Of a DNA stretch of 14,225 nt, positions 1-13,752 are shown in pieces; position 1 is the stretch's first letter, and the number at the start of each line of letters is the position of its first letter. The notes beneath the pieces are model-generated. The model was given only the letters and a program-made list of their open reading frames with translations, searched no databases and was not told the DNA's origin. The DNA is from a virus (lineage: Duplodnaviria; Heunggongvirae; Uroviricota; Caudoviricetes), in IMG/VR virus record IMGVR_UViG_2606217174_000013, positions 1-14,225 of that record; one strand, given 5' to 3'. Position numbers and translations under genes: made by a program.

Positions 1-258
1 ATGCAAACCGTTATTTTTGGTCGTTCGGGTTGCCCTTACTGTGTGCGTGCAAAAGATCTGGCTGAGAAATTGAGCAATGAACGCGATGATTTTCAGTATC
101 AGTATGTAGATATTCGTGCGGAAGGGATCACTAAAGAAGATCTACAACAAAAGGCAGGTAAACCCGTAGAAACCGTGCCGCAGATTTTTGTCGATCAGCA
201 ACATATCGGCGGCTATACCGATTTTGCTGCATGGGTGAAAGAAAATCTGGACGCCTGA
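1..258 (+). CDS. grxA: glutaredoxin 1
   Basis: 85-aa ORF starting at window base 1, CPYC redox motif near N-terminus, sequence matches enterobacterial GrxA as I recall it; TGA stop at 256-258. Promoter lies outside the window. Confidence 0.92.
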   Translation: MQTVIFGRSGCPYCVRAKDLAEKLSNERDDFQYQYVDIRAEGITKEDLQQKAGKPVETVPQIFVDQQHIGGYTDFAAWVKENLDA

Positions 259-267
259 TCGTCTGAC

Positions 268-300
268 AAGCCCTCGCGTTGAGGGCTTTACTGATTTTTT
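268..300 (+). terminator. putative Rho-independent terminator downstream of grxA
   Basis: 8-bp perfect stem AAGCCCTC (268-275) / GAGGGCTT (281-288) with 5-nt loop, followed by a U-rich tract ending TTTTTT (295-300). The ybjM stop codon (288-290, minus strand) overlaps the stem. Confidence 0.5.
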
Positions 301-665
301 CTGTGCTGTGGTTTAAACAAACTACTGATAAATAAGAAACACAGTGCCCCCAGCGCACACCAGAACACCGCGCTTAGTAACCATGCCAGCTCTTGCCAGA
401 ATGAGCGCGTCGGTGAAAAAAACAGCCGCATAATGAGCATCGAACAGGGTGCCGCCAGCATTGCGCCAAACAGAGGTTTCAGGACTTCTCTACGCTGTGA
501 AAAGAAGCTGGCGACTGCTCCAGGAAGAATGAAAAATAGCAAGCCGATTTCAGGATGCCCGGCAGCCCGAAAAGCGCCTTTCATGTGCGTCGCCAGAAAA
601 AGGCACACCACAATGAAGAGGACAAAACAGCAGATTGCCCCCGCCCAACGTTGTTTATGTTTCAC
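288..665 (-). CDS. ybjM: small inner-membrane protein YbjM
   Basis: 125-aa strongly hydrophobic ORF, convergent with grxA and divergent from ybjL, as in the E. coli ybjL-ybjM-grxA neighbourhood; size and sequence fit YbjM as recalled. Confidence 0.8.
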   Translation of the reverse strand: MKHKQRWAGAICCFVLFIVVCLFLATHMKGAFRAAGHPEIGLLFFILPGAVASFFSQRREVLKPLFGAMLAAPCSMLIMRLFFSPTRSFWQELAWLLSAVFWCALGALCFLFISSLFKPQHRKNQ

Positions 666-934
666 TCGTTCCTCCTGACACTGCGTCTATCGAACACATT
701 TTTCGCCAGTGTGGCGTTCAGTAAGATAAAGCCGCTTCGCATTCCATGCTAATATAGGCCAACGCAATTCATATAGCCGTTGATACCTAATGTGATTACA
801 CTAGTAAAATATATTGTTACTTTACTATCGTTTAGGTGCGCTGAATGAATCTGCGCCCTGAATTCTGGTAAAAAACATTATCGTAAATTACCATTTCTTT
901 CAACAGCTTACTAGTAAACAAGAAGTTAGCCTCC

Positions 935-2620
935 GTGAATATAAACGTCGCCGAATTGTTAAATGGGAATTACATTCTGTTATTATTTGTGGTCCTCGCG
1001 CTTGGGCTATGTCTCGGAAAGTTACGACTTGGTTCGATCCAACTGGGTAATTCCATTGGCGTTTTAGTCGTATCGCTGTTATTAGGCCAACAACATTTCA
1101 GCATTAACACCGATGCGCTTAATCTTGGCTTTATGCTGTTTATTTTCTGCGTCGGGGTCGAAGCCGGACCGAACTTTTTTTCCATTTTTTTTCGCGATGG
1201 GAAAAATTACCTAATGTTAGCACTGGTGATGGTTGGCAGTGCGCTGGTGATCGCCTTAGGGTTAGGTAAGCTGTTTGGCTGGGATATTGGCCTGACGGCC
1301 GGTATGTTAGCAGGCTCTATGACGTCGACACCGGTTCTGGTCGGTGCTGGCGATACACTGCGTCATTCCGGCATGGAAAGCAGGCAGCTCTCACTGGCAC
1401 TGGATAATCTGAGCCTCGGGTATGCCTTAACCTATTTAATCGGTCTGGTGAGTTTGATTGTTGGTGCGCGTTACTTGCCGAAATTGCAGCATCAGGACTT
1501 ACAGACCAGCGCCCAGCAAATCGCCCGCGAACGTGGCCTGGACACTGATGCCAACCGTAAGGTTTATTTACCGGTGATCCGCGCCTATCGCGTCGGCCCG
1601 GAACTGGTGGCCTGGACCGACGGCAAAAATCTGCGTGAACTGGGTATTTATCGACAAACCGGCTGCTACATTGAACGTATTCGACGTAACGGGATTCTGG
1701 CAAATCCAGACGGTGATGCCGTGCTACAAATGGGCGATGAAATAGCGTTGGTAGGCTATCCCGACGCCCATGCCCGACTCGATCCCAGCTTCCGTAACGG
1801 TAAAGAAGTTTTCGATCGTGACCTTCTCGACATGCGTATCGTCACTGAAGAAGTGGTCGTTAAAAACCATAACGCTGTAGGTAAACGTCTCGCACAACTG
1901 AAGTTGACCGATCACGGTTGCTTCCTTAACCGCGTCATTCGTAGCCAGATTGAGATGCCGATAGATGACAACGTCGTGCTTAACAAAGGTGACGTTTTAC
2001 AAGTCAGCGGCGATGCCCGCCGCGTAAAAACCATCGCCGATCGCATCGGCTTTATCTCGATTCACAGCCAGGTCACTGACCTGCTGGCATTCTGCGCCTT
2101 CTTTGTTATTGGGCTGATGATCGGGATGATCACCTTCCAGTTCAGCACATTCAGTTTCGGCATGGGGAACGCTGCCGGGTTGTTATTCGCCGGAATTATG
2201 CTGGGCTTTATGCGTGCTAACCACCCGACCTTCGGTTACATTCCGCAGGGTGCATTAAGCATGGTGAAAGAGTTCGGCTTGATGGTGTTTATGGCAGGCG
2301 TTGGTCTGAGCGCCGGTAGCGGTATTAATAACGGCCTGGGCGCGATTGGCGGTCAGATGTTGATTGCCGGATTGATTGTCAGTCTGGTGCCCGTGGTTAT
2401 CTGTTTCTTGTTCGGTGCTTATGTATTGCGAATGAACCGCGCGCTGTTGTTCGGCGCAATGATGGGCGCACGTACCTGCGCGCCGGCAATGGAGATCATC
2501 AGTGATACAGCTCGCAGTAACATCCCGGCGCTGGGCTATGCGGGCACCTATGCAATCGCCAACGTCCTGCTGACGCTGGCAGGGACAATCATCGTCATGG
2601 TATGGCCAGGATTAGGATAA
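935..2620 (+). CDS. ybjL: putative transporter YbjL (AAE family; two membrane domains flanking paired cytoplasmic RCK/TrkA-C-like domains)
   Basis: 561-aa ORF with GTG start at 935, N-terminus [13 protein letters not shown]; hydrophobic N- and C-terminal blocks around a hydrophilic central region; matches enterobacterial YbjL as recalled. Confidence 0.92.
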
Positions 2621-2732
2621 AACTGAAGTTGCCCTGAAAATGAAATTTTTTTGCACAACCGCAGAACTTTTCCGCAGGGCATCAGTCTTAATTAGTGCCA
2701 CTGCTTTTCTTTGATGTCCCCATTTTGTGGAG

Positions 2733-2776
2733 CCCATCAACCCCGCCATTTCGGTTCAAGGTTGATGGGTTTTTTG
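2733..2776 (+). terminator. putative Rho-independent terminator downstream of ybjL, inside the interval that must contain the prophage junction
   Basis: 10-bp perfect inverted repeat CCCATCAACC (2733-2742) / GGTTGATGGG (2760-2769), 17-nt loop, then TTTTTTG (2770-2776). Confidence 0.5.
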
Positions 2777-2855
2777 TTGCCTGAAATTTAAGCTGTTTAA
2801 AATCATGATGTTAGAAGCACTGTTTTTTAACGATGGCGACAAAATGGCGGCAGCG

Positions 2856-3074
2856 TCAAAGAGAGAGCGCCACCTGTCCTGATTTCATTGGATGCGGCTG
2901 AACCGGATTTGACTCTTTTGGCGTTGCAATCGAACGAACAAAAGTTTCATGGGTAACAAAAGTATGGCTGCAGTTAATGTTCTGGCACTGGTTGTAACGC
3001 TCTTTGGTCAATGAAGATACCTGAAAACTGCTGCGAGTATGGGCGGCACTTCCACACAGTGGGCAAATCATCAT
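2856..3074 (-). CDS. ogr: Ogr/Delta-family zinc-finger late transcription activator
   Basis: 72-aa product from the internal ATG at 3074 (MMICPLCGS...), with GGGGAGA Shine-Dalgarno 9 nt upstream; Cys-x2-Cys...Cys-x4-Cys pattern (CPLC ... CQNINC) and KERYNQCQN motif typical of P2 Ogr; position immediately after D as in P2. The ORF-track start at 3107 is probably too far upstream. Confidence 0.85.
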   Translation of the reverse strand: MMICPLCGSAAHTRSSFQVSSLTKERYNQCQNINCSHTFVTHETFVRSIATPKESNPVQPHPMKSGQVALSL

Positions 3075-3164
3075 TTTTCGAGTTCTCCCCATTTTTGCTA
3101 AATTCACAATAATGATACCGCATTATTCCATTTTGCAAACTTAAAAGTTCTCCATTGCGAAGAA

Positions 3165-10144: not shown

Positions 10145-10711
10145 TCAGGGGGATTCACTGCTCTTATTTGCCGGAAATTTTCTATAAATGGTAGAAACGC
10201 CCACATCAAAAATCAGTGCAATACGCTGTCTTGATTCTCCGGCCTCGAGTAAACGTCCAATCTGTGCCCACTGTTCGGTGGTCAACTTAGGACGACGTCC
10301 ACCTACTCTGCCTTTGTCGCGAGCTGCAGCAATCCCCGCCCTGGTACGTTCAACTATCAGTTCGCGTTCCATTTCAGCCAGGGCACCCATGACATGAAAA
10401 AAGAAACGGCCCATTGGGGTACTGGTATCAATACTGTCAGTCAGGCTTCGGAAATTCACGCCACGCTGGCGCAACTCTTCTATCAGCGTAACAAGATGCC
10501 GCATACTGCGTCCCAACCTGTCCAGCTTCCAGACAACCAGCGTGTCTCCTGCCGATAGTGTCCTGAGTAGTTTTTTCAGTCCCGGTCTGTCGGACTTAGT
10601 GCCACTGATTTTGTCCTCAAAAATTCGCTCACATCCCGCGCAGTTCAGTGCATTACGTTGCAAATCGGTGTTCTGGTCATTTGTTGACACACGTACATAG
10701 CCAATAAGCAT
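10145..10711 (-). CDS. serine DNA invertase (Hin/Gin/Pin/Cin family site-specific recombinase)
   Basis: N-terminus MLIGYVRVSTNDQ with the catalytic serine in the conserved motif; resolvase-type catalytic domain; C-terminal helix-turn-helix (...VGVSTIYRKF...). Start chosen at the ATG at 10711, which has a GGGGG Shine-Dalgarno 6 nt upstream; the track start at 10717 is too close to it. Confidence 0.9.
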   Translation of the reverse strand: MLIGYVRVSTNDQNTDLQRNALNCAGCERIFEDKISGTKSDRPGLKKLLRTLSAGDTLVVWKLDRLGRSMRHLVTLIEELRQRGVNFRSLTDSIDTSTPMGRFFFHVMGALAEMERELIVERTRAGIAAARDKGRVGGRRPKLTTEQWAQIGRLLEAGESRQRIALIFDVGVSTIYRKFPANKSSESP

Positions 10712-10766
10712 GATCATCCCCCTGAATAAAAACCGGAGATGATGCCAGTTAGCTGTTACCTCTGCA

Positions 10767-10792
10767 TTTTCTTAAACGTTGGTTTGGGAGAA
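10767..10792. repeat. invertase crossover site, left (gix/hix/cix-like 26-bp site)
   Basis: TTTTCTTAAACG TT GGTTTGGGAGAA; the 14 bp at 10779-10792 (TTGGTTTGGGAGAA) are a perfect inverted copy of 12691-12704; half-sites fit the TTxTCxxAAACC pattern of Hin-family sites around a 2-bp core (10779-10780). Confidence 0.7.
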
Positions 10793-11248
10793 ACGATAAA
10801 TAAAGCCTCCGGAGCTATGCAGAAATCGGCTAATGGATCTGATATTTCTGATGTATCAGCCTTCCGAAATGCGCTCCAGTTAGGGACCGCTGCAACACGA
10901 GATGTTGGAGCAGATAATCCCTCGAAGTTACTGGATTTAGACAGCTTCAGGTCAATGATGTCAGGTAATGGCTACATCTACATTCCATGCATTGCGACGA
11001 CAGGAAACCCGGTGAAACTTATGTTGCAGTGGGGAACGGTGGCAACACAAAAGGGAGCTGATGTTGGATATGCCTTACCATTTGCTTTTCCCTATGCAGG
11101 CTTGTTTGCGACCGGAAACCGTGGAACATCTGGCTACAATGCCGCGATGAATGTGCGTATTGCCAGCAGAACGCATATCAGTATTCAGAACTGGTCGCCA
11201 TCCGGAGAGGGCACCGAAGATTGTTGTTTTATCGCGCTGGGGTATTAA
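10781..11248 (+). CDS. silent alternative tail-fibre C-terminal (receptor-binding) cassette; promoterless, expressed only after inversion fuses it to the constant part of H
   Basis: Open frame running in-frame through the crossover site (…VGLGE TINKAS…) to a TAA stop at 11246-11248. The track start at 10739 lies outside the invertible segment and is probably not a real start. About 150 aa, no obvious similarity to the current H C-terminus. Confidence 0.65.
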   Translation, partial: GLGETINKASGAMQKSANGSDISDVSAFRNALQLGTAATRDVGADNPSKLLDLDSFRSMMSGNGYIYIPCIATTGNPVKLMLQWGTVATQKGADVGYALPFAFPYAGLFATGNRGTSGYNAAMNVRIASRTHISIQNWSPSGEGTEDCCFIALGY

Positions 11249-11250
11249 GA

Positions 11251-11667
11251 ATGAATAAATTTTATAAAGGCTCTTTCTATCCGGAAGCACTAAAAGATGT
11301 ATATATCAGCGCCGGTTCATGGCCTGAAAATGGCGCTGATGTTGATGATGAAACAATGGCAATTTACACAGGCGTAGCGCCAGAAGGCAAAACGCTGGGG
11401 GCTGATAAAAATGGTAATCCTGCGTGGATTGATATCCCGCCACTCTCCGCTGAACAACAGATTATTCTGGCTGAACAGAAAAGAACGGTATTGCGTTCTA
11501 TGGCTGATAAGGAAATAGTCTGGAGACAGGATGCTTTTGATGCGGAAATCGCGACGGCAGAAGAAACCGCCGCGTTATCTGAATGGAAAAAATACCGGGT
11601 CTTGCTGATGCGCGTTGATACATCAAATCCCGTCTGGCCTACGCCTCCGGGGGAGCAGGCCAATTGA
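11251..11667 (+). CDS. alternative tail fibre assembly chaperone (Tfa; U'-like)
   Basis: 138-aa product from the ATG at 11251 (MNKFYKGSFYPEA...), 2 nt after the alternative fibre cassette stop; C-terminal ...DTSNPVWPTPPGEQAN resembles the C-terminus of the G product. Confidence 0.8.
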   Translation: MNKFYKGSFYPEALKDVYISAGSWPENGADVDDETMAIYTGVAPEGKTLGADKNGNPAWIDIPPLSAEQQIILAEQKRTVLRSMADKEIVWRQDAFDAEIATAEETAALSEWKKYRVLLMRVDTSNPVWPTPPGEQAN

Positions 11668-12241
11668 TATCCGGCGCGGTGCTGGTATCAGTTGCCGTCA
11701 CCGCGTCAATGTAATCCAGCACAGCGTTAAGTCGGGTGTTTTCTGTCTGCGTCAGCTTCCGCCCGGTCTGCAATTTCAGTTGAATCAGACTAATGGAAGC
11801 CATTGCAGTATCAATCAGTGACTGACGCTGTGCTTCTGCCGCGCCTACTGCGGCACTATGCTGTGCCTCAGTATCTGTCACCCATTTCTCACCATCCCAT
11901 TTATCGTATGGCGTTAACGGTGCGAGAGTGGTTGTATTATCAGGGTAATCACCCGGTGCTGTGATTTCTTTTGATTCTCCTGTTTCGGTGCTAAAGACAA
12001 TTTCACCGCGATGGTCCGGCACATATTCCCATGAATTTAAATCCACAGAGCGGCAAATTGAATAACCATCCTTATGTGTACCAGGAGCCTCTAAACAGGA
12101 ACATGCCGGAATACCAACACCCACAGCAAGATATTCAGATGATTCGGAAATATATTCCCGCGTATCACCATCATAGTTATAAACGATGACGTTTCCCGCC
12201 TGTACGGCAATAAGGTCATTATTTAATATCGCGTTATTCAT
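11639..12241 (-). CDS. G: tail fibre assembly chaperone (P2 gpG / Tfa), currently expressed copy
   Basis: 200-aa ORF whose ATG overlaps the H stop (TAATG); C-terminus ...TDTSTAPDINWPAPPEA; immediately downstream of the fibre gene as in P2. Confidence 0.85.
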   Translation of the reverse strand: MNNAILNNDLIAVQAGNVIVYNYDGDTREYISESSEYLAVGVGIPACSCLEAPGTHKDGYSICRSVDLNSWEYVPDHRGEIVFSTETGESKEITAPGDYPDNTTTLAPLTPYDKWDGEKWVTDTEAQHSAAVGAAEAQRQSLIDTAMASISLIQLKLQTGRKLTQTENTRLNAVLDYIDAVTATDTSTAPDINWPAPPEA

Positions 12242-13752
12242 TATGCAGCTCTCACAATATAATTGAAGGCGATGTTACGTGGGCGGGTTTCATTTCCCCC
12301 TGAAAACTCCGTTCTGTATTGACTGTTAAACCTCCCGTTAATCGCACCTTCCTGCACGGCGTTATCTGTCGACAACAGACTGTCGCCCTGTCTGTCATTT
12401 GGTTCCAGTACTGTATTATTCCACGCGTCCCATGATCGGATATAGTGACAATGACTCCCTGTCAACCATTCCTGTGCGCTTAAGATGGCTCGACCTGTAT
12501 CCACACCGCGCCCGTCATCCCAGCCACGAATAAATTCACCGCGTAAATCAGGTAATTTTCCGCTCGGGTAAGCCTTTGCCAGTTCCGGGTATTCTTCAGC
12601 AGAAAAAGCCGCACCGTTGCATTTCAGCCAGCCTGTCGGAGGTGTGACAGAAGGCCAGGGAACAGGGACACCAACGGGTAATGCTGAGCCTTCTCCCAAA
12701 CCAAGGTATGCGAGAAGACCAGCTACATCCTTTCCACTCAAATTAGTCAGCGTATTGTCCAGCGGTTGTTTACCTGACAGAGCATTCAACATTGTCGTGG
12801 CAAAGTTCGGGTCATTTCCCAGCGCCGCCGCCAGTTCGTTCAGTGTATCCAGTGCAGCAGGTGCAGAACCCACCATTGCCGCAATCGCCGATTTCACAAA
12901 AGCCGTGGTGGCAATCTGTGTATTGTTGACCGACTGTGCCGCCGTGGGGGCTGTCGGCGTCCCGGTAAGTGCAGGACTCGACAGCGGCGCTTTGAGTGCC
13001 AGCGCATCATTAATGGTGGTACTGAATTTCGGGTCATTGTTAATGGCTGCGGCTATTTCTTTCAGTGTGTCCAGCGTGGCTGGCGCACCATTAATAAGAG
13101 CCGTCAGTGCCGCCTGAACAAACGCAGTGGTCGCAACCTGCGTGGTGTTATTGCCTGCCGCAGGTGTTGGCGCTTTTGGTGTCCCGGTAAACGTCGGACT
13201 TTCTTTCTGTGCATATTGTGAATGCGGGTCCGGTGCGGCAAGGTGTTTTGCCAGCTGGTCATCCACGTACACCTTCAGCTCCAGTGCCTTGTCATCCACA
13301 TACTTGCGGGTTGCCAGCACTACGGCAGGGTCGATTTTCAGGGTGATATTGTCCGTGCTGCTGGTAATCAACACCATACGCACGGTCTGGGTGCGCCCGC
13401 TGCCTTCAGCCAGTTGCGGCTTATAGCTTTCCGGGCAGTTGCCCACGGCAATCAATGCCCCTGACTCATCAAACAGGCCCACTTCACGTATCCACCAACC
13501 GCCCTCGTTTTCAGGGATCACCTGTTCAGCAATAATCTGGCTGCTGTTCTGCAGGTCGATATAAAGCATATTCAGCGCAGCCCGGCGTTTCTCATTTACC
13601 AGTGCCGTCTGCTTTGCGTCCGGCGTTGGCAATACTCCGCCGCCATCGCCCACCGCCATATGGGTAATTTTTAGCGGCACACCGAGCGCGGCGGCGCTGG
13701 CAAGTTTCGCCGCGCCAATATCCGTCAGCAGGGTATAAAATTTTGTGCTCAT
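12241..13752 (-). CDS. H: tail fibre protein (P2 gpH family), current orientation
   Basis: 503-aa ORF; N-terminus MSTKF...MAVGDGGG... resembles the conserved P2 H N-terminal domain; two tandem fibre repeats in the middle; C-terminal variable domain begins at the crossover site (codons 350-354, LGLGE). Confidence 0.9.
   Translation of the reverse strand: MSTKFYTLLTDIGAAKLASAAALGVPLKITHMAVGDGGGVLPTPDAKQTALVNEKRRAALNMLYIDLQNSSQIIAEQVIPENEGGWWIREVGLFDESGALIAVGNCPESYKPQLAEGSGRTQTVRMVLITSSTDNITLKIDPAVVLATRKYVDDKALELKVYVDDQLAKHLAAPDPHSQYAQKESPTFTGTPKAPTPAAGNNTTQVATTAFVQAALTALINGAPATLDTLKEIAAAINNDPKFSTTINDALALKAPLSSPALTGTPTAPTAAQSVNNTQIATTAFVKSAIAAMVGSAPAALDTLNELAAALGNDPNFATTMLNALSGKQPLDNTLTNLSGKDVAGLLAYLGLGEGSALPVGVPVPWPSVTPPTGWLKCNGAAFSAEEYPELAKAYPSGKLPDLRGEFIRGWDDGRGVDTGRAILSAQEWLTGSHCHYIRSWDAWNNTVLEPNDRQGDSLLSTDNAVQEGAINGRFNSQYRTEFSGGNETRPRNIAFNYIVRAA
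12691..12716. repeat. invertase crossover site, right (inside H at the constant/variable junction)
   Basis: TTCTCCCAAACC AA GGTATGCGAGAA; the first 14 bp are the exact reverse complement of 10779-10792; the 2-bp core (12703-12704) falls in codon 350 of H. Confidence 0.7.
12757..13200 (-). repeat. two tandem ~222-bp (74-codon) fibre repeats within H
   Basis: H residues 185-258 and 259-332 are two copies of the pattern SP-x-TGTP-x-APT...NNT-Q-ATTAFV...AP-A-LDTL-E-AAA-NDP-F-TT..., visible as two similar DNA blocks. Confidence 0.5.

Follow-up and report, generated by a model that had tools for sequence, protein, structure and literature searches.

A probable Pin/e14-type invertible tail-fibre segment in a P2-like Escherichia coli prophage

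The fibre genes and the invertase gene

The window, that is, the whole stretch of 14,225 nucleotides that was analysed (IMG/VR record IMGVR_UViG_2606217174_000013), has the tail gene order I-H-G ... FI-FII-E-T-U-D-ogr that is characteristic of P2-like (Peduoviridae) phages. Pfam matches were found to Tail_P2_I, Phage_tail_fib, Caudo_TAP, sheath, tube, Phage_TAC_7, tape measure, GpU, GPD and Ogr_Delta, and Peduovirus records, including phages S164 and MET_P1_103_31, were among the best DNA matches. The best explanation is that the window belongs to a P2-like prophage next to ybjL in an E. coli chromosome, and that the segment described here has the fibre gene H on one side and the sheath gene FI on the other, in the place that Z/fun occupies in P2 itself.

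The features of the locus are listed in Table 1. The constant part of H (12241-13752, minus strand, 503 aa) follows a homologue of P2 gpI (Tail_P2_I) and lies outside the segment, while two convergent cassettes, each with a fibre tip and a chaperone, lie inside it and can both be fused in frame to the constant part. This is the architecture of a fibre switch. The 200-aa chaperone gene overlaps the stop codon of H with its start (TAATG) and shares 29 nt at its 3' end with the other chaperone gene.

Table 1. Positions of genes, sites and other features at the locus
Feature	Position	Strand	Remarks
Serine DNA invertase (Pin/Gin/Cin/Hin family)	10145..10717	-	ORF of 190 aa; likely start ATG 10711, giving 188 aa
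Putative Fis-dependent recombinational enhancer	10622..10693		5' end of invertase gene, gene nt 19-90; assigned by homology only
Left (invertase-proximal) 26-bp site, pixR-like	10767..10792		TTTTCTTAAACG / TT / GGTTTGGGAGAA; core 10779-10780
Probable invertible segment	10781..12702		1922 bp between the two cores
Silent alternative fibre C-terminus (cassette B)	10781..11248	+	155 codons including the shared GLGE; stop 11246-11248; Pfam Gp53-like_C 6.9e-09
Silent alternative tail-fibre assembly chaperone, 138 aa	11251..11667	+	Pfam Caudo_TAP 1.7e-30; starts 2 nt past the cassette B stop
Expressed tail-fibre assembly chaperone, 200 aa, TfaE-like	11639..12241	-	P2 G position; Pfam Caudo_TAP 3.9e-33
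Expressed variable C-terminus of H, residues 351-503	12241..12702	-	tail-collar; Pfam Collar 1.7e-14 at residues 361-408
Right 26-bp site inside H, pixL-like	12691..12716		TTCTCCCAAACC / AA / GGTATGCGAGAA; core 12703-12704
Constant N-terminal part of H, codons 1-350	12703..13752	-	outside the segment; Pfam Phage_tail_fib N-terminal 9.7e-64

An earlier, sequence-only reading of this DNA had put an invertase gene about 55 bp from the left site, and this distance is correct for the second ATG of the reading frame (10711, 55 nt), which is also the start chosen by PGAP in relatives; the first ATG is 49 nt away. The protein matches the Pfam families Resolvase (7.3e-53) and HTH_7 (1.2e-15), and residues 3-186 could be aligned to the Gin crystal structure 3uj3 with an E-value of 7.6e-93, as compared to 1.9e-33 for gamma-delta resolvase. 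It has an N-terminal catalytic domain with a nucleophilic serine, that of YVRVSTNDQ, which aligns with the Gin nucleophile position, it carries HTH_7 at the C-terminal, and its similarity to Din invertases is much higher than to resolvases, all of which are properties of the small Din serine invertases. The Gin/Hin-type assignment proposed earlier was upheld when the protein was compared with the known family, with 85% identity to e14 PinE, 76% to Cin and 73% to Mu Gin; the identity is 96% to the invertase of the E. coli ES1 and 8GC prophages and 98.9% to that of phage KP12. An NCBIfam search did not assign the invertase to any specific family, all matches being far below the cut-off, and yielded nothing for the fibre or chaperone proteins. 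Judged from its sequence, the gene encodes an intact serine invertase of the Gin/Pin family.

Some residues are reported to be uniquely conserved in invertases that depend on Fis and an enhancer; in Hin these are Gln151, Arg154 and Leu155 together with basic residues of helix B at 47, 48 and 51 (PMC3798978). They are kept in the window invertase as Q-IG-RL (in EQWAQIGRLL) and KK..R (in GLKKLLR), as read from the Gin alignment. The Hin numbering used here rests on PDB 1HCR, which we take to begin at Hin residue 139. A candidate enhancer was also found. The P1 record labels cin nt 19-90 as 'enhancer of Cin-mediated C-segment inversion', and the same part of the window's gene is identical to it at 56/72 positions (78%), compared to 68% for the rest of the gene, in a region that is also highly conserved coding sequence, for the best conserved part of the protein. 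It holds two G..C 15-mers, at 10690-10676 and 10641-10627, which are 49 bp apart centre to centre. The hin enhancer is about 65 bp long with a Fis site at each end and 47 bp between the Fis-site centres, and such enhancers are usually found in the 5' part of the invertase gene. The proximal candidate Fis core is about 98 bp from the crossover, and the second candidate core has a G/C-rich centre. Synonymous-codon identity was 0.575 in the enhancer codons and 0.457 elsewhere, a modest difference that is confounded by non-independent sequences. We infer that the switch may depend on Fis and on this enhancer.

The crossover sites and the predicted fusion

The perfect 14-bp inverted copies described in the sequence-only reading were recovered, TTGGTTTGGGAGAA at 10779-10792 on the plus strand and its exact reverse complement at 12691-12704. 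There is no further copy in the window at up to 2 mismatches, and two repeat matches were obtained in 0/200 shuffles of the sequence; the inverted repeats are real and non-random. A repeat search lengthens the pair to 26-nt arms, 10767-10792 and 12691-12716, which are 81% complementary. The Hin-family half-site character that had been ascribed to them is borne out, each 14-bp repeat being made up of the inner 12-bp half-site of a 26-bp site of the Din/Hin family together with its AA core of 2 bp. The window has two such sites in inverted orientation, with the layout 12+2+12 and imperfect 12-bp half-sites (consensus TTC---AAAC-), and once the sites are aligned both cores are AA, as religation requires.

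The sites were compared with those in Table 3 of PMC3241671. The reverse complement of the left site, TTCTCCCAAACC AA CGTTTAAGAAAA, is identical at 25/26 positions to published pixR, and the right site at 23/26 to published pixL. The left site is moreover identical to the invertase-proximal site of an experimentally inverting P2 locus in EPEC. The outer half-site of the right site has GTAT where the consensus has GTTT, and GTAT is also found in published cixR and bixL. The version of the right site in the 8GC and ES1 prophages, which differs from that of the window at one non-consensus position, has evidently recombined. A third site, as in multi-state switches such as the other EPEC P2 locus or Min, was looked for in the window at up to 2 mismatches and none was found. 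Candidates with 4 mismatches, for example 11886-11911, were rejected; they lie in sequence that is conserved across all loci and lack the half-site consensus.

The earlier reading presupposed that the repeat falls at the recombinase core in homologous systems, and in the window's sites, which match pixL and pixR, the AA core does form one end of the 14-bp repeat. In the window the 2-bp core is the outermost 2 bp of the repeat and supplies the second and third bases of H codon 350 (CTT, Leu), which would accordingly be the codon in which the strands are exchanged. The following Gly-Leu-Gly-Glu is read in the same phase in both copies, as had been stated, in H codons 351-354 (GGT TTG GGA GAA) and in codons 15-18 of the ORF 10739-11248 (+); it is encoded by the inner half-site and carried along with each cassette. 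Inversion in silico put cassette B in frame with H codon 350 and gave an open H of 505 aa. The predicted 505-aa fusion thus stands, while the crossover after codon 354 that was proposed with it has to be moved to codon 350. The predicted recombinant H matches the H annotated in E. coli ES1 at 494/505 identical positions (98%) without gaps, and the alternative chaperone, which was expected to come into the expressed orientation, is annotated in ES1 directly downstream of the 505-aa H.

One could also think of the repeat as a conserved coding motif, a Gly-Leu-Gly-Glu linker that is common to paralogous fibre cassettes and has no role in recombination. In favour of this, the in-frame reading is GLGE in both copies, and many fibre genes have the motif. 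However, four residues need neither identical codons nor the two preceding bases, the non-coding 12 bp that flank the left copy, TTTTCTTAAACG, still form a Din half-site, and the segment has been found inverted precisely at the repeats. We consider this explanation extremely improbable, as compared to a crossover site of the Din type.

Natural orientations and known inversion systems

The prophages of E. coli ES1 and 8GC are 100% identical over 2610 and 2210 nt of flanking sequence, and the 1938-nt interior between these flanks is 99.74% identical and in opposite orientation. The interior in ES1 is opposite to that of both 8GC and the window, with 99.7-99.8% identity. The breakpoints between ES1 and 8GC lie inside the repeats, in the 14 bp of identity to which the core belongs, and these 14 bp are the limit of resolution, the inner half-sites being identical. 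Among complete E. coli genomes, the predicted recombinant junction was found uninterrupted in 87 and the window-type junction in 6, which is not a clean ratio, as spot checks turned up at least two module types among the 87, which differ in their partner cassettes. The second module type likewise occurs in both states, in EC3 as compared to EC11 and EM06-18-14. These natural data support inversion, in that near-identical prophages carry the segment either way round.

Inversion has also been observed in cultures. Co-existing orientations were detected by sequencing of clonal cultures both for e14 and for a P2 prophage of EPEC E2348/69 (Goldberg 2014, PMC4272514), and for e14, with the inverted repeat AAACCTTGGTTTGGGAGAAGG, the inversion was confirmed by PCR as well. 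The inverting EPEC P2 locus is at 2977580-2979467 in NC_011601, and 93% was in the forward state (PMC4272514).

Homologous recombination by RecA between the inverted repeats, with the neighbouring invertase irrelevant to it, would fit the perfect copies and the breakpoints that are not resolvable below 14 bp. It has next to no probability in our view. An identity of 14 bp is far below the length for efficient RecA-mediated recombination, and the repeat is exactly one Din half-site and the core. The outer half-sites, which are not identical and one of which is non-coding, also fit the Din consensus, and the same 14 bp are the inversion end-point in e14 and in a Mu-type prophage of EPEC.

The possibility that the module comes from a functional switch that no longer inverts in this prophage, with a fixed orientation and, for example, a silent invertase or a weakened right site, has more to be said for it, and we still find it improbable. 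A consensus promoter scan gave no sigma-70-like promoter for the invertase or within the segment (2 sites found, 4.2 in shuffles), a terminator-like hairpin lies at 10750-10731, just before the invertase ATG, the GTAT of the right outer half-site departs from the consensus, and the window-type junction is the rarer one among assemblies. That count mixes module types, however, and the full-length invertase ORF has all catalytic and Fis-contact residues. Both sites are only 1-3 nt from functional pix sites, near-identical modules occur in both orientations, and the EPEC locus inverts even within a truncated prophage remnant. The switch may be active in this strain.

The closest match in every respect is the P-segment of e14, the cryptic prophage of E. 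coli K-12, with its invertase PinE and the sites pixL and pixR. The 14-bp repeat is identical, as are the order of invertase, site and two convergent fibre-tip and Tfa cassettes, and the 29-nt overlap of the chaperone 3' ends, which adds to the likeness in sites and invertase given above. The expressed chaperone of the window has about 87% DNA identity to tfaE, and parts of the expressed tip about 87% to stfE. The differences are that e14 is a defective lambdoid element, whereas the window has an apparently complete P2-type myovirus tail module, that the silent cassette of the window (gp53-like tip and 138-aa Tfa) has no DNA match to stfP/tfaP beyond the site, and that stfE is annotated as a pseudogene in K-12.

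The P2 locus of EPEC E2348/69 mentioned above likewise has the fibre genes on one side and sheath gene FI on the other, and is similar in size, 1888 bp as compared to 1922 bp, in addition to sharing the invertase-proximal site. The EPEC locus, at 2.977 Mb, is however a truncated remnant with an integrase fragment abutting the distal site, and its invertase is more diverged, with about 74% DNA identity to that of the window. In the other EPEC P2 locus there are three repeats of 215 bp and four states, as compared to only two sites in the window.

The Mu G segment with Gin and the P1 C segment with Cin belong to the same mechanism class, with a constant fibre N-terminus (Sc) outside and Sv-U and Sv'-U' inside, and the constant part of H has 71.6% DNA identity to part of the P1 S constant region. 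Both segments are larger, about 3.0 kb in Mu and 4.3 kb in P1 by record annotations. The core is GA in Mu as compared to AA in the window, and the Mu sites sit within longer inverted repeats (34 bp). In P1 the 3' end of cin is towards cixL, whereas in the window, Mu and e14 it is the 5' end of the invertase gene that faces the site. Salmonella Hin is of the same family, and in its site hixL, TTCTTGAAAACC AA GGTTTTTGATAA, the corresponding 14 bp are also a half-site and the core. The Fis enhancer of Hin is about 100 bp away from a hix site, in the 5'-terminal part of hin, a spacing similar to that of the candidate here. In contrast to the window, where the invertase is outside the segment and coding 3' ends are exchanged, Hin flips a promoter, in an ON/OFF choice between flagellins, and the hin gene is inside the segment.

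Taken together, the region 10781-12702 is very likely a Pin/e14-type invertible tail-fibre segment in a P2-like (Peduovirus-type) prophage. The Mu G, P1 C and e14 P mechanism that the sequence-only reading had named is supported by the invertase, the sites, the architecture, the two natural orientations and the published EPEC inversion. Its remark that P2 has no such switch while some P2-like prophages do agrees with a preprint on the P2 Z/fun hotspot, in which a DNA invertase and inversion of adjacent genes are frequent (bioRxiv 10.1101/2024.10.15.618418). The switch is of a well-known kind, and many E. coli genomes are already known to carry the module, in one orientation or the other.

Possible cassette exchange and the meaning of the switch

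By analogy with these systems, the 188-aa invertase would bind the two inverted sites as dimers and, together with the Fis-bound enhancer in the 5' part of its gene, form an invertasome on supercoiled DNA. Both sites would be cleaved at the central AA/TT dinucleotide, one subunit pair would rotate 180 degrees, and religation would flip the 1922-bp segment. No promoter would be flipped; the switch would consist in the exchange of the 3' end of H, with transcription starting upstream of H, which in P2 is in a late operon. In the present orientation codons 1-350 of H would lead into the tail-collar-type tip (503 aa), followed by the 200-aa TfaE-like chaperone, and in the inverted orientation the same 350 codons would lead into the gp53-like tip (505 aa), followed by the 138-aa chaperone. 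It is plausible that the two tips differ in specificity, their Pfam families being different (Collar and Gp53-like_C), and we infer that the two orientations may give different host ranges. A population of lysogens would then release virions with two receptor specificities, i.e. host-range bet-hedging.

For annotation, this means that an ORF labelled 'gp53-like domain-containing protein' in PGAP style is a silent cassette and not a stand-alone gene, that H can yield either of two products, and that a difference in orientation between assemblies of one prophage can be legitimate.

The segment also looks as if it has been horizontally exchanged exactly at the crossover sites. When the window is compared with the 8GC, A30 and ES1 prophages, 0.16-0.5% of positions differ in the interior and 4-8% just outside on both sides, and the nearest flank mismatches are 7 nt from each core. 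In other relatives the homology begins or ends at the sites. It is possible, and we put it forward tentatively, that the segment is a horizontally mobile cassette, and that, when it passes between diverged P2-like prophages, the exchange ends exactly at the crossover sites of the invertase. If this is true, Din invertases acting on the pix-type sites that are common to e14, Mu-like and P2-like elements would catalyse replacement of cassettes between co-resident prophages, besides inversion. The idea of site-specific cassette exchange dates from the 1990s, when it was put forward for the Min and Cin regions, and we know of no genome-scale quantification of cassette exchange driven by invertases.

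As to the biology, this is a textbook switch for host-range bet-hedging, and the locus adds an instance and not a principle. The one point of some value for research is how sharply divergence falls exactly at the crossover sites; the pattern could be used across thousands of E. coli genomes to ask if invertases also drive the exchange of cassettes between prophages.

Crossover sites and the fibre reading frame

The 14-bp repeat TTGGTTTGGGAGAA lies at 10779-10792, and a sequence search recovered its exact reverse complement at 12691-12704, in agreement with the perfect inverted copies that the sequence-only reading had described. No further copy was found in the 14.2-kb window with up to two mismatches allowed, and the two-match outcome appeared in 0/200 dinucleotide-preserving shuffles. 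As there are only two sites, the switch has two states. A repeat search extended the pair to 26-nt arms, and these were compared with the list of Din-family sites in Table 3 of PMC3241671. The right site on the plus strand, TTCTCCCAAACC AA GGTATGCGAGAA, matches pixL at 23 of 26 positions, and the reverse complement of the left site, TTCTCCCAAACC AA CGTTTAAGAAAA, matches pixR at 25 of 26. By this comparison the repeat coincides with the core used by the recombinase in homologous systems, the point on which the earlier interpretation had offered itself to be judged. It could be imagined that the repeat is purely a coding coincidence, or that any inversion is due to RecA-mediated recombination. 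Neither is at all likely: one half-site and the core make up the repeat exactly, the outer half-site that is non-coding nevertheless agrees with the consensus, and inversion at other loci ends at these same 14 bp. The perfect 14-bp repeat of hix is likewise one 12-bp half-site and the 2-bp core.

The P2-type tail-fibre gene H encodes 503 aa, and the repeat is translated as Gly-Leu-Gly-Glu at codons 351-354; the same residues are codons 15-18 of the Gp53-like ORF. When the segment is inverted in silico, the reading frame stays open for 505 aa, so both the shared phase and the fusion claimed from sequence alone are borne out. The core supplies the last two bases of H codon 350 (CTT), and therefore the exchange point is codon 350. 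The predicted protein stands as proposed, but the crossover had been placed after residue 354, and Gly-Leu-Gly-Glu is instead carried by each cassette.

Features of the invertible segment and its surroundings
Feature	Position	Strand	Domains or site elements
Small serine recombinase (invertase)	10145-10717	-	Pfam Resolvase + HTH_7
Gp53-like fibre C-terminal domain	10739-11248	+	Pfam
Left site (26-nt arm)	10767-10792		outer half-site TTTTCTTAAACG, core TT, inner half-site GGTTTGGGAGAA
Caudo_TAP chaperone	11251-11667	+	Pfam
Caudo_TAP chaperone	11639-12241	-	Pfam
H	12241-13752	-	Pfam: P2-type fibre N-terminus; tail-collar domain, residues 361-408
Right site, in H (26-nt arm)	12691-12716	-	outer half-site TTCTCGCATACC, core TT, inner half-site GGTTTGGGAGAA

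The Gp53-like ORF (169 aa) consists of the silent cassette and 14 codons lying outside the segment, and PGAP labels it 'gp53-like domain-containing protein' in relatives. The start codon at 10739 and the divergent invertase ORF are only 21 nt apart, and in the opposite orientation this ATG leads into the other silent cassette, for instance in strain ES1 (locus L001, 5559-6062). The 3' ends of the convergent chaperone genes share 29 nt (11639-11667), exactly as those of e14 tfaP and tfaE do (locus L004, 3018-3046), a sign that the junction of the two cassettes may be conserved. Within the constant region of H, the stretch 12758-13204 contains an internal direct repeat, 12944-12978 and 13166-13200, with a spacing of 222 nt. 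This stretch has 71.6% DNA identity to that section of the P1 S constant region in which the P1 record annotates repeated elements of about 222 nt.

Invertase, candidate enhancer and mode of switching

The recombinase aligns end to end with the crystal structure of Mu Gin (3uj3, E=7.6e-93), and gamma-delta resolvase is matched with E=1.9e-33. It is 85% identical to e14 PinE, 76% to P1 Cin, 73% to Mu Gin and 98.9% to the invertase of the KP12 phage; the 3uj3 alignment and the 73-85% identities uphold its earlier naming as a Gin/Hin-type invertase. The nucleophilic serine is kept, and so, by alignment, are the equivalents of Hin Gln151, Arg154, Leu155 and the basic residues 47, 48 and 51, which are uniquely conserved in Fis/enhancer-dependent invertases (McLean et al., PMC3798978). 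That the switch is a frozen relic, inactive in the window's strain, is improbable. No sigma-70-like promoter that could drive the invertase came out of a promoter scan. A weak hairpin resembling a terminator, with a T-run after it (10731-10750, minus strand), lies between the left site and the start of the invertase and could shield this gene from transcription running on from H-G.

The P1 record annotates an inversion enhancer at cin nt 19-90. The stretch 10622-10693 of the invertase gene is identical to it at 56/72 positions, and the remaining gene at 68%. Two G..C 15-mers are present, 10690-10676 and 10641-10627. About 98 bp separate the proximal 15-mer from the crossover, a distance close to the approximately 100 bp that have been reported in the Hin system. 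We regard a Fis-dependent recombinational enhancer in the 5' part of the invertase gene as putative, because the stretch also codes for the best-conserved portion of the protein and its synonymous conservation is only modestly raised (0.575 against 0.457).

In the standard Din invertasome model the two sites would be bound by invertase dimers, which together with the Fis-bound enhancer would form a synapse on supercoiled DNA. The AA/TT cores would then be cleaved, one pair of subunits would rotate, and the strands would be religated. The promoter scan found no promoter-like sequence within the segment. The switch therefore swaps the 3' part of H together with the chaperone gene that follows it, and transcription of both would come from upstream. 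This is the mode of action of Mu G, P1 C and e14 P, unlike the promoter flip of Hin.

Both orientations in natural genomes

Complete E. coli genomes were searched with the predicted recombinant junction, the constant part of H joined to cassette B (the silent gp53-like tip and its chaperone). This junction was found uninterrupted in 87 genomes and the window-type junction in 6, numbers that are not a clean orientation ratio because cassette B also occurs with a different partner cassette, in both states, and this second module type is included. It is found in strains EC3, EC11 and EM06-18-14, with EC3 in one state and the other two in the opposite one. The clearest pair is formed by the prophages of ES1 and 8GC. 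Over 2610 and 2210 nt their flanks do not differ at all (100% identity), and many flanking proteins have the same accession numbers. Their 1938-nt interiors, which run in opposite directions, are 99.74% identical, and the breakpoints lie within the repeats. Furthermore, the annotated H of ES1 is identical to the predicted 505-aa fibre at 494/505 residues, without gaps. Sites, frames, invertase and both orientations in nature confirm what had been observed from sequence alone and support its interpretation as an invertible tail-fibre switch.

Comparison with the prophages of 8GC, A30 and ES1 showed that 0.16-0.5% of positions differ in the segment interior (10781-12702), while 10718-10780 and 12703-12760 are 4-8% diverged, on both sides; the flank mismatch closest to each core, at 10772 and at 12711, is 7 nt away from it. 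Homology to the KH_005 and KP12 prophages stops at 10792-10795, the inner edge of the left site, and that to EC3 resumes at 12690, at the right site. Because of this drop in divergence and these breaks, the crossover sites look like boundaries of horizontal cassette exchange, and site-specific replacement between co-resident prophages with common pix-type sites would fit the pattern.

Prophage setting and published inversion

The neighbouring genes belong to a P2 tail module (I, FI sheath, FII tube, E, tape measure, U, D and ogr), and window 1-2850 is 100% identical to the grxA-ybjM-ybjL region of many E. coli genomes, which makes this a P2-like prophage in E. coli. P2 carries Z/fun in the G-FI interval, where the window has the invertase and the second cassette. 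The left end of the window (1-3107) holds host DNA, with the end of grxA, ybjM (288-665) and ybjL (935-2620); the prophage gene ogr begins at 2856, which puts the insertion immediately downstream of ybjL.

By sequencing clonal cultures, Goldberg et al. 2014 (PMC4272514) detected orientations existing side by side at several loci: at e14, with the inverted repeat AAACCTTGGTTTGGGAGAAGG and PCR confirmation, and in a Mu-type and two P2-type prophages of EPEC E2348/69. One EPEC P2-type locus (NC_011601 2977580-2979467, 1888 bp) was 93% in the forward state, and its invertase-proximal site is identical to the left site of the window. This experimentally inverting locus (L003, NC_011601.1 2975500-2982500) is a remnant; a partial integrase pseudogene adjoins the distal site at the expected place of the H constant part, so it still flips without any full-length fibre. 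According to a 2024 preprint (bioRxiv 10.1101/2024.10.15.618418), the P2 Z/fun hotspot frequently contains a DNA invertase, accompanied by inversion of neighbouring genes. The phenomenon has therefore already been described for P2-type phages with such sites. The P2-like prophage of the window carries an invertible tail-fibre segment of the Pin/e14 type, a switch that is already known and widespread in E. coli.
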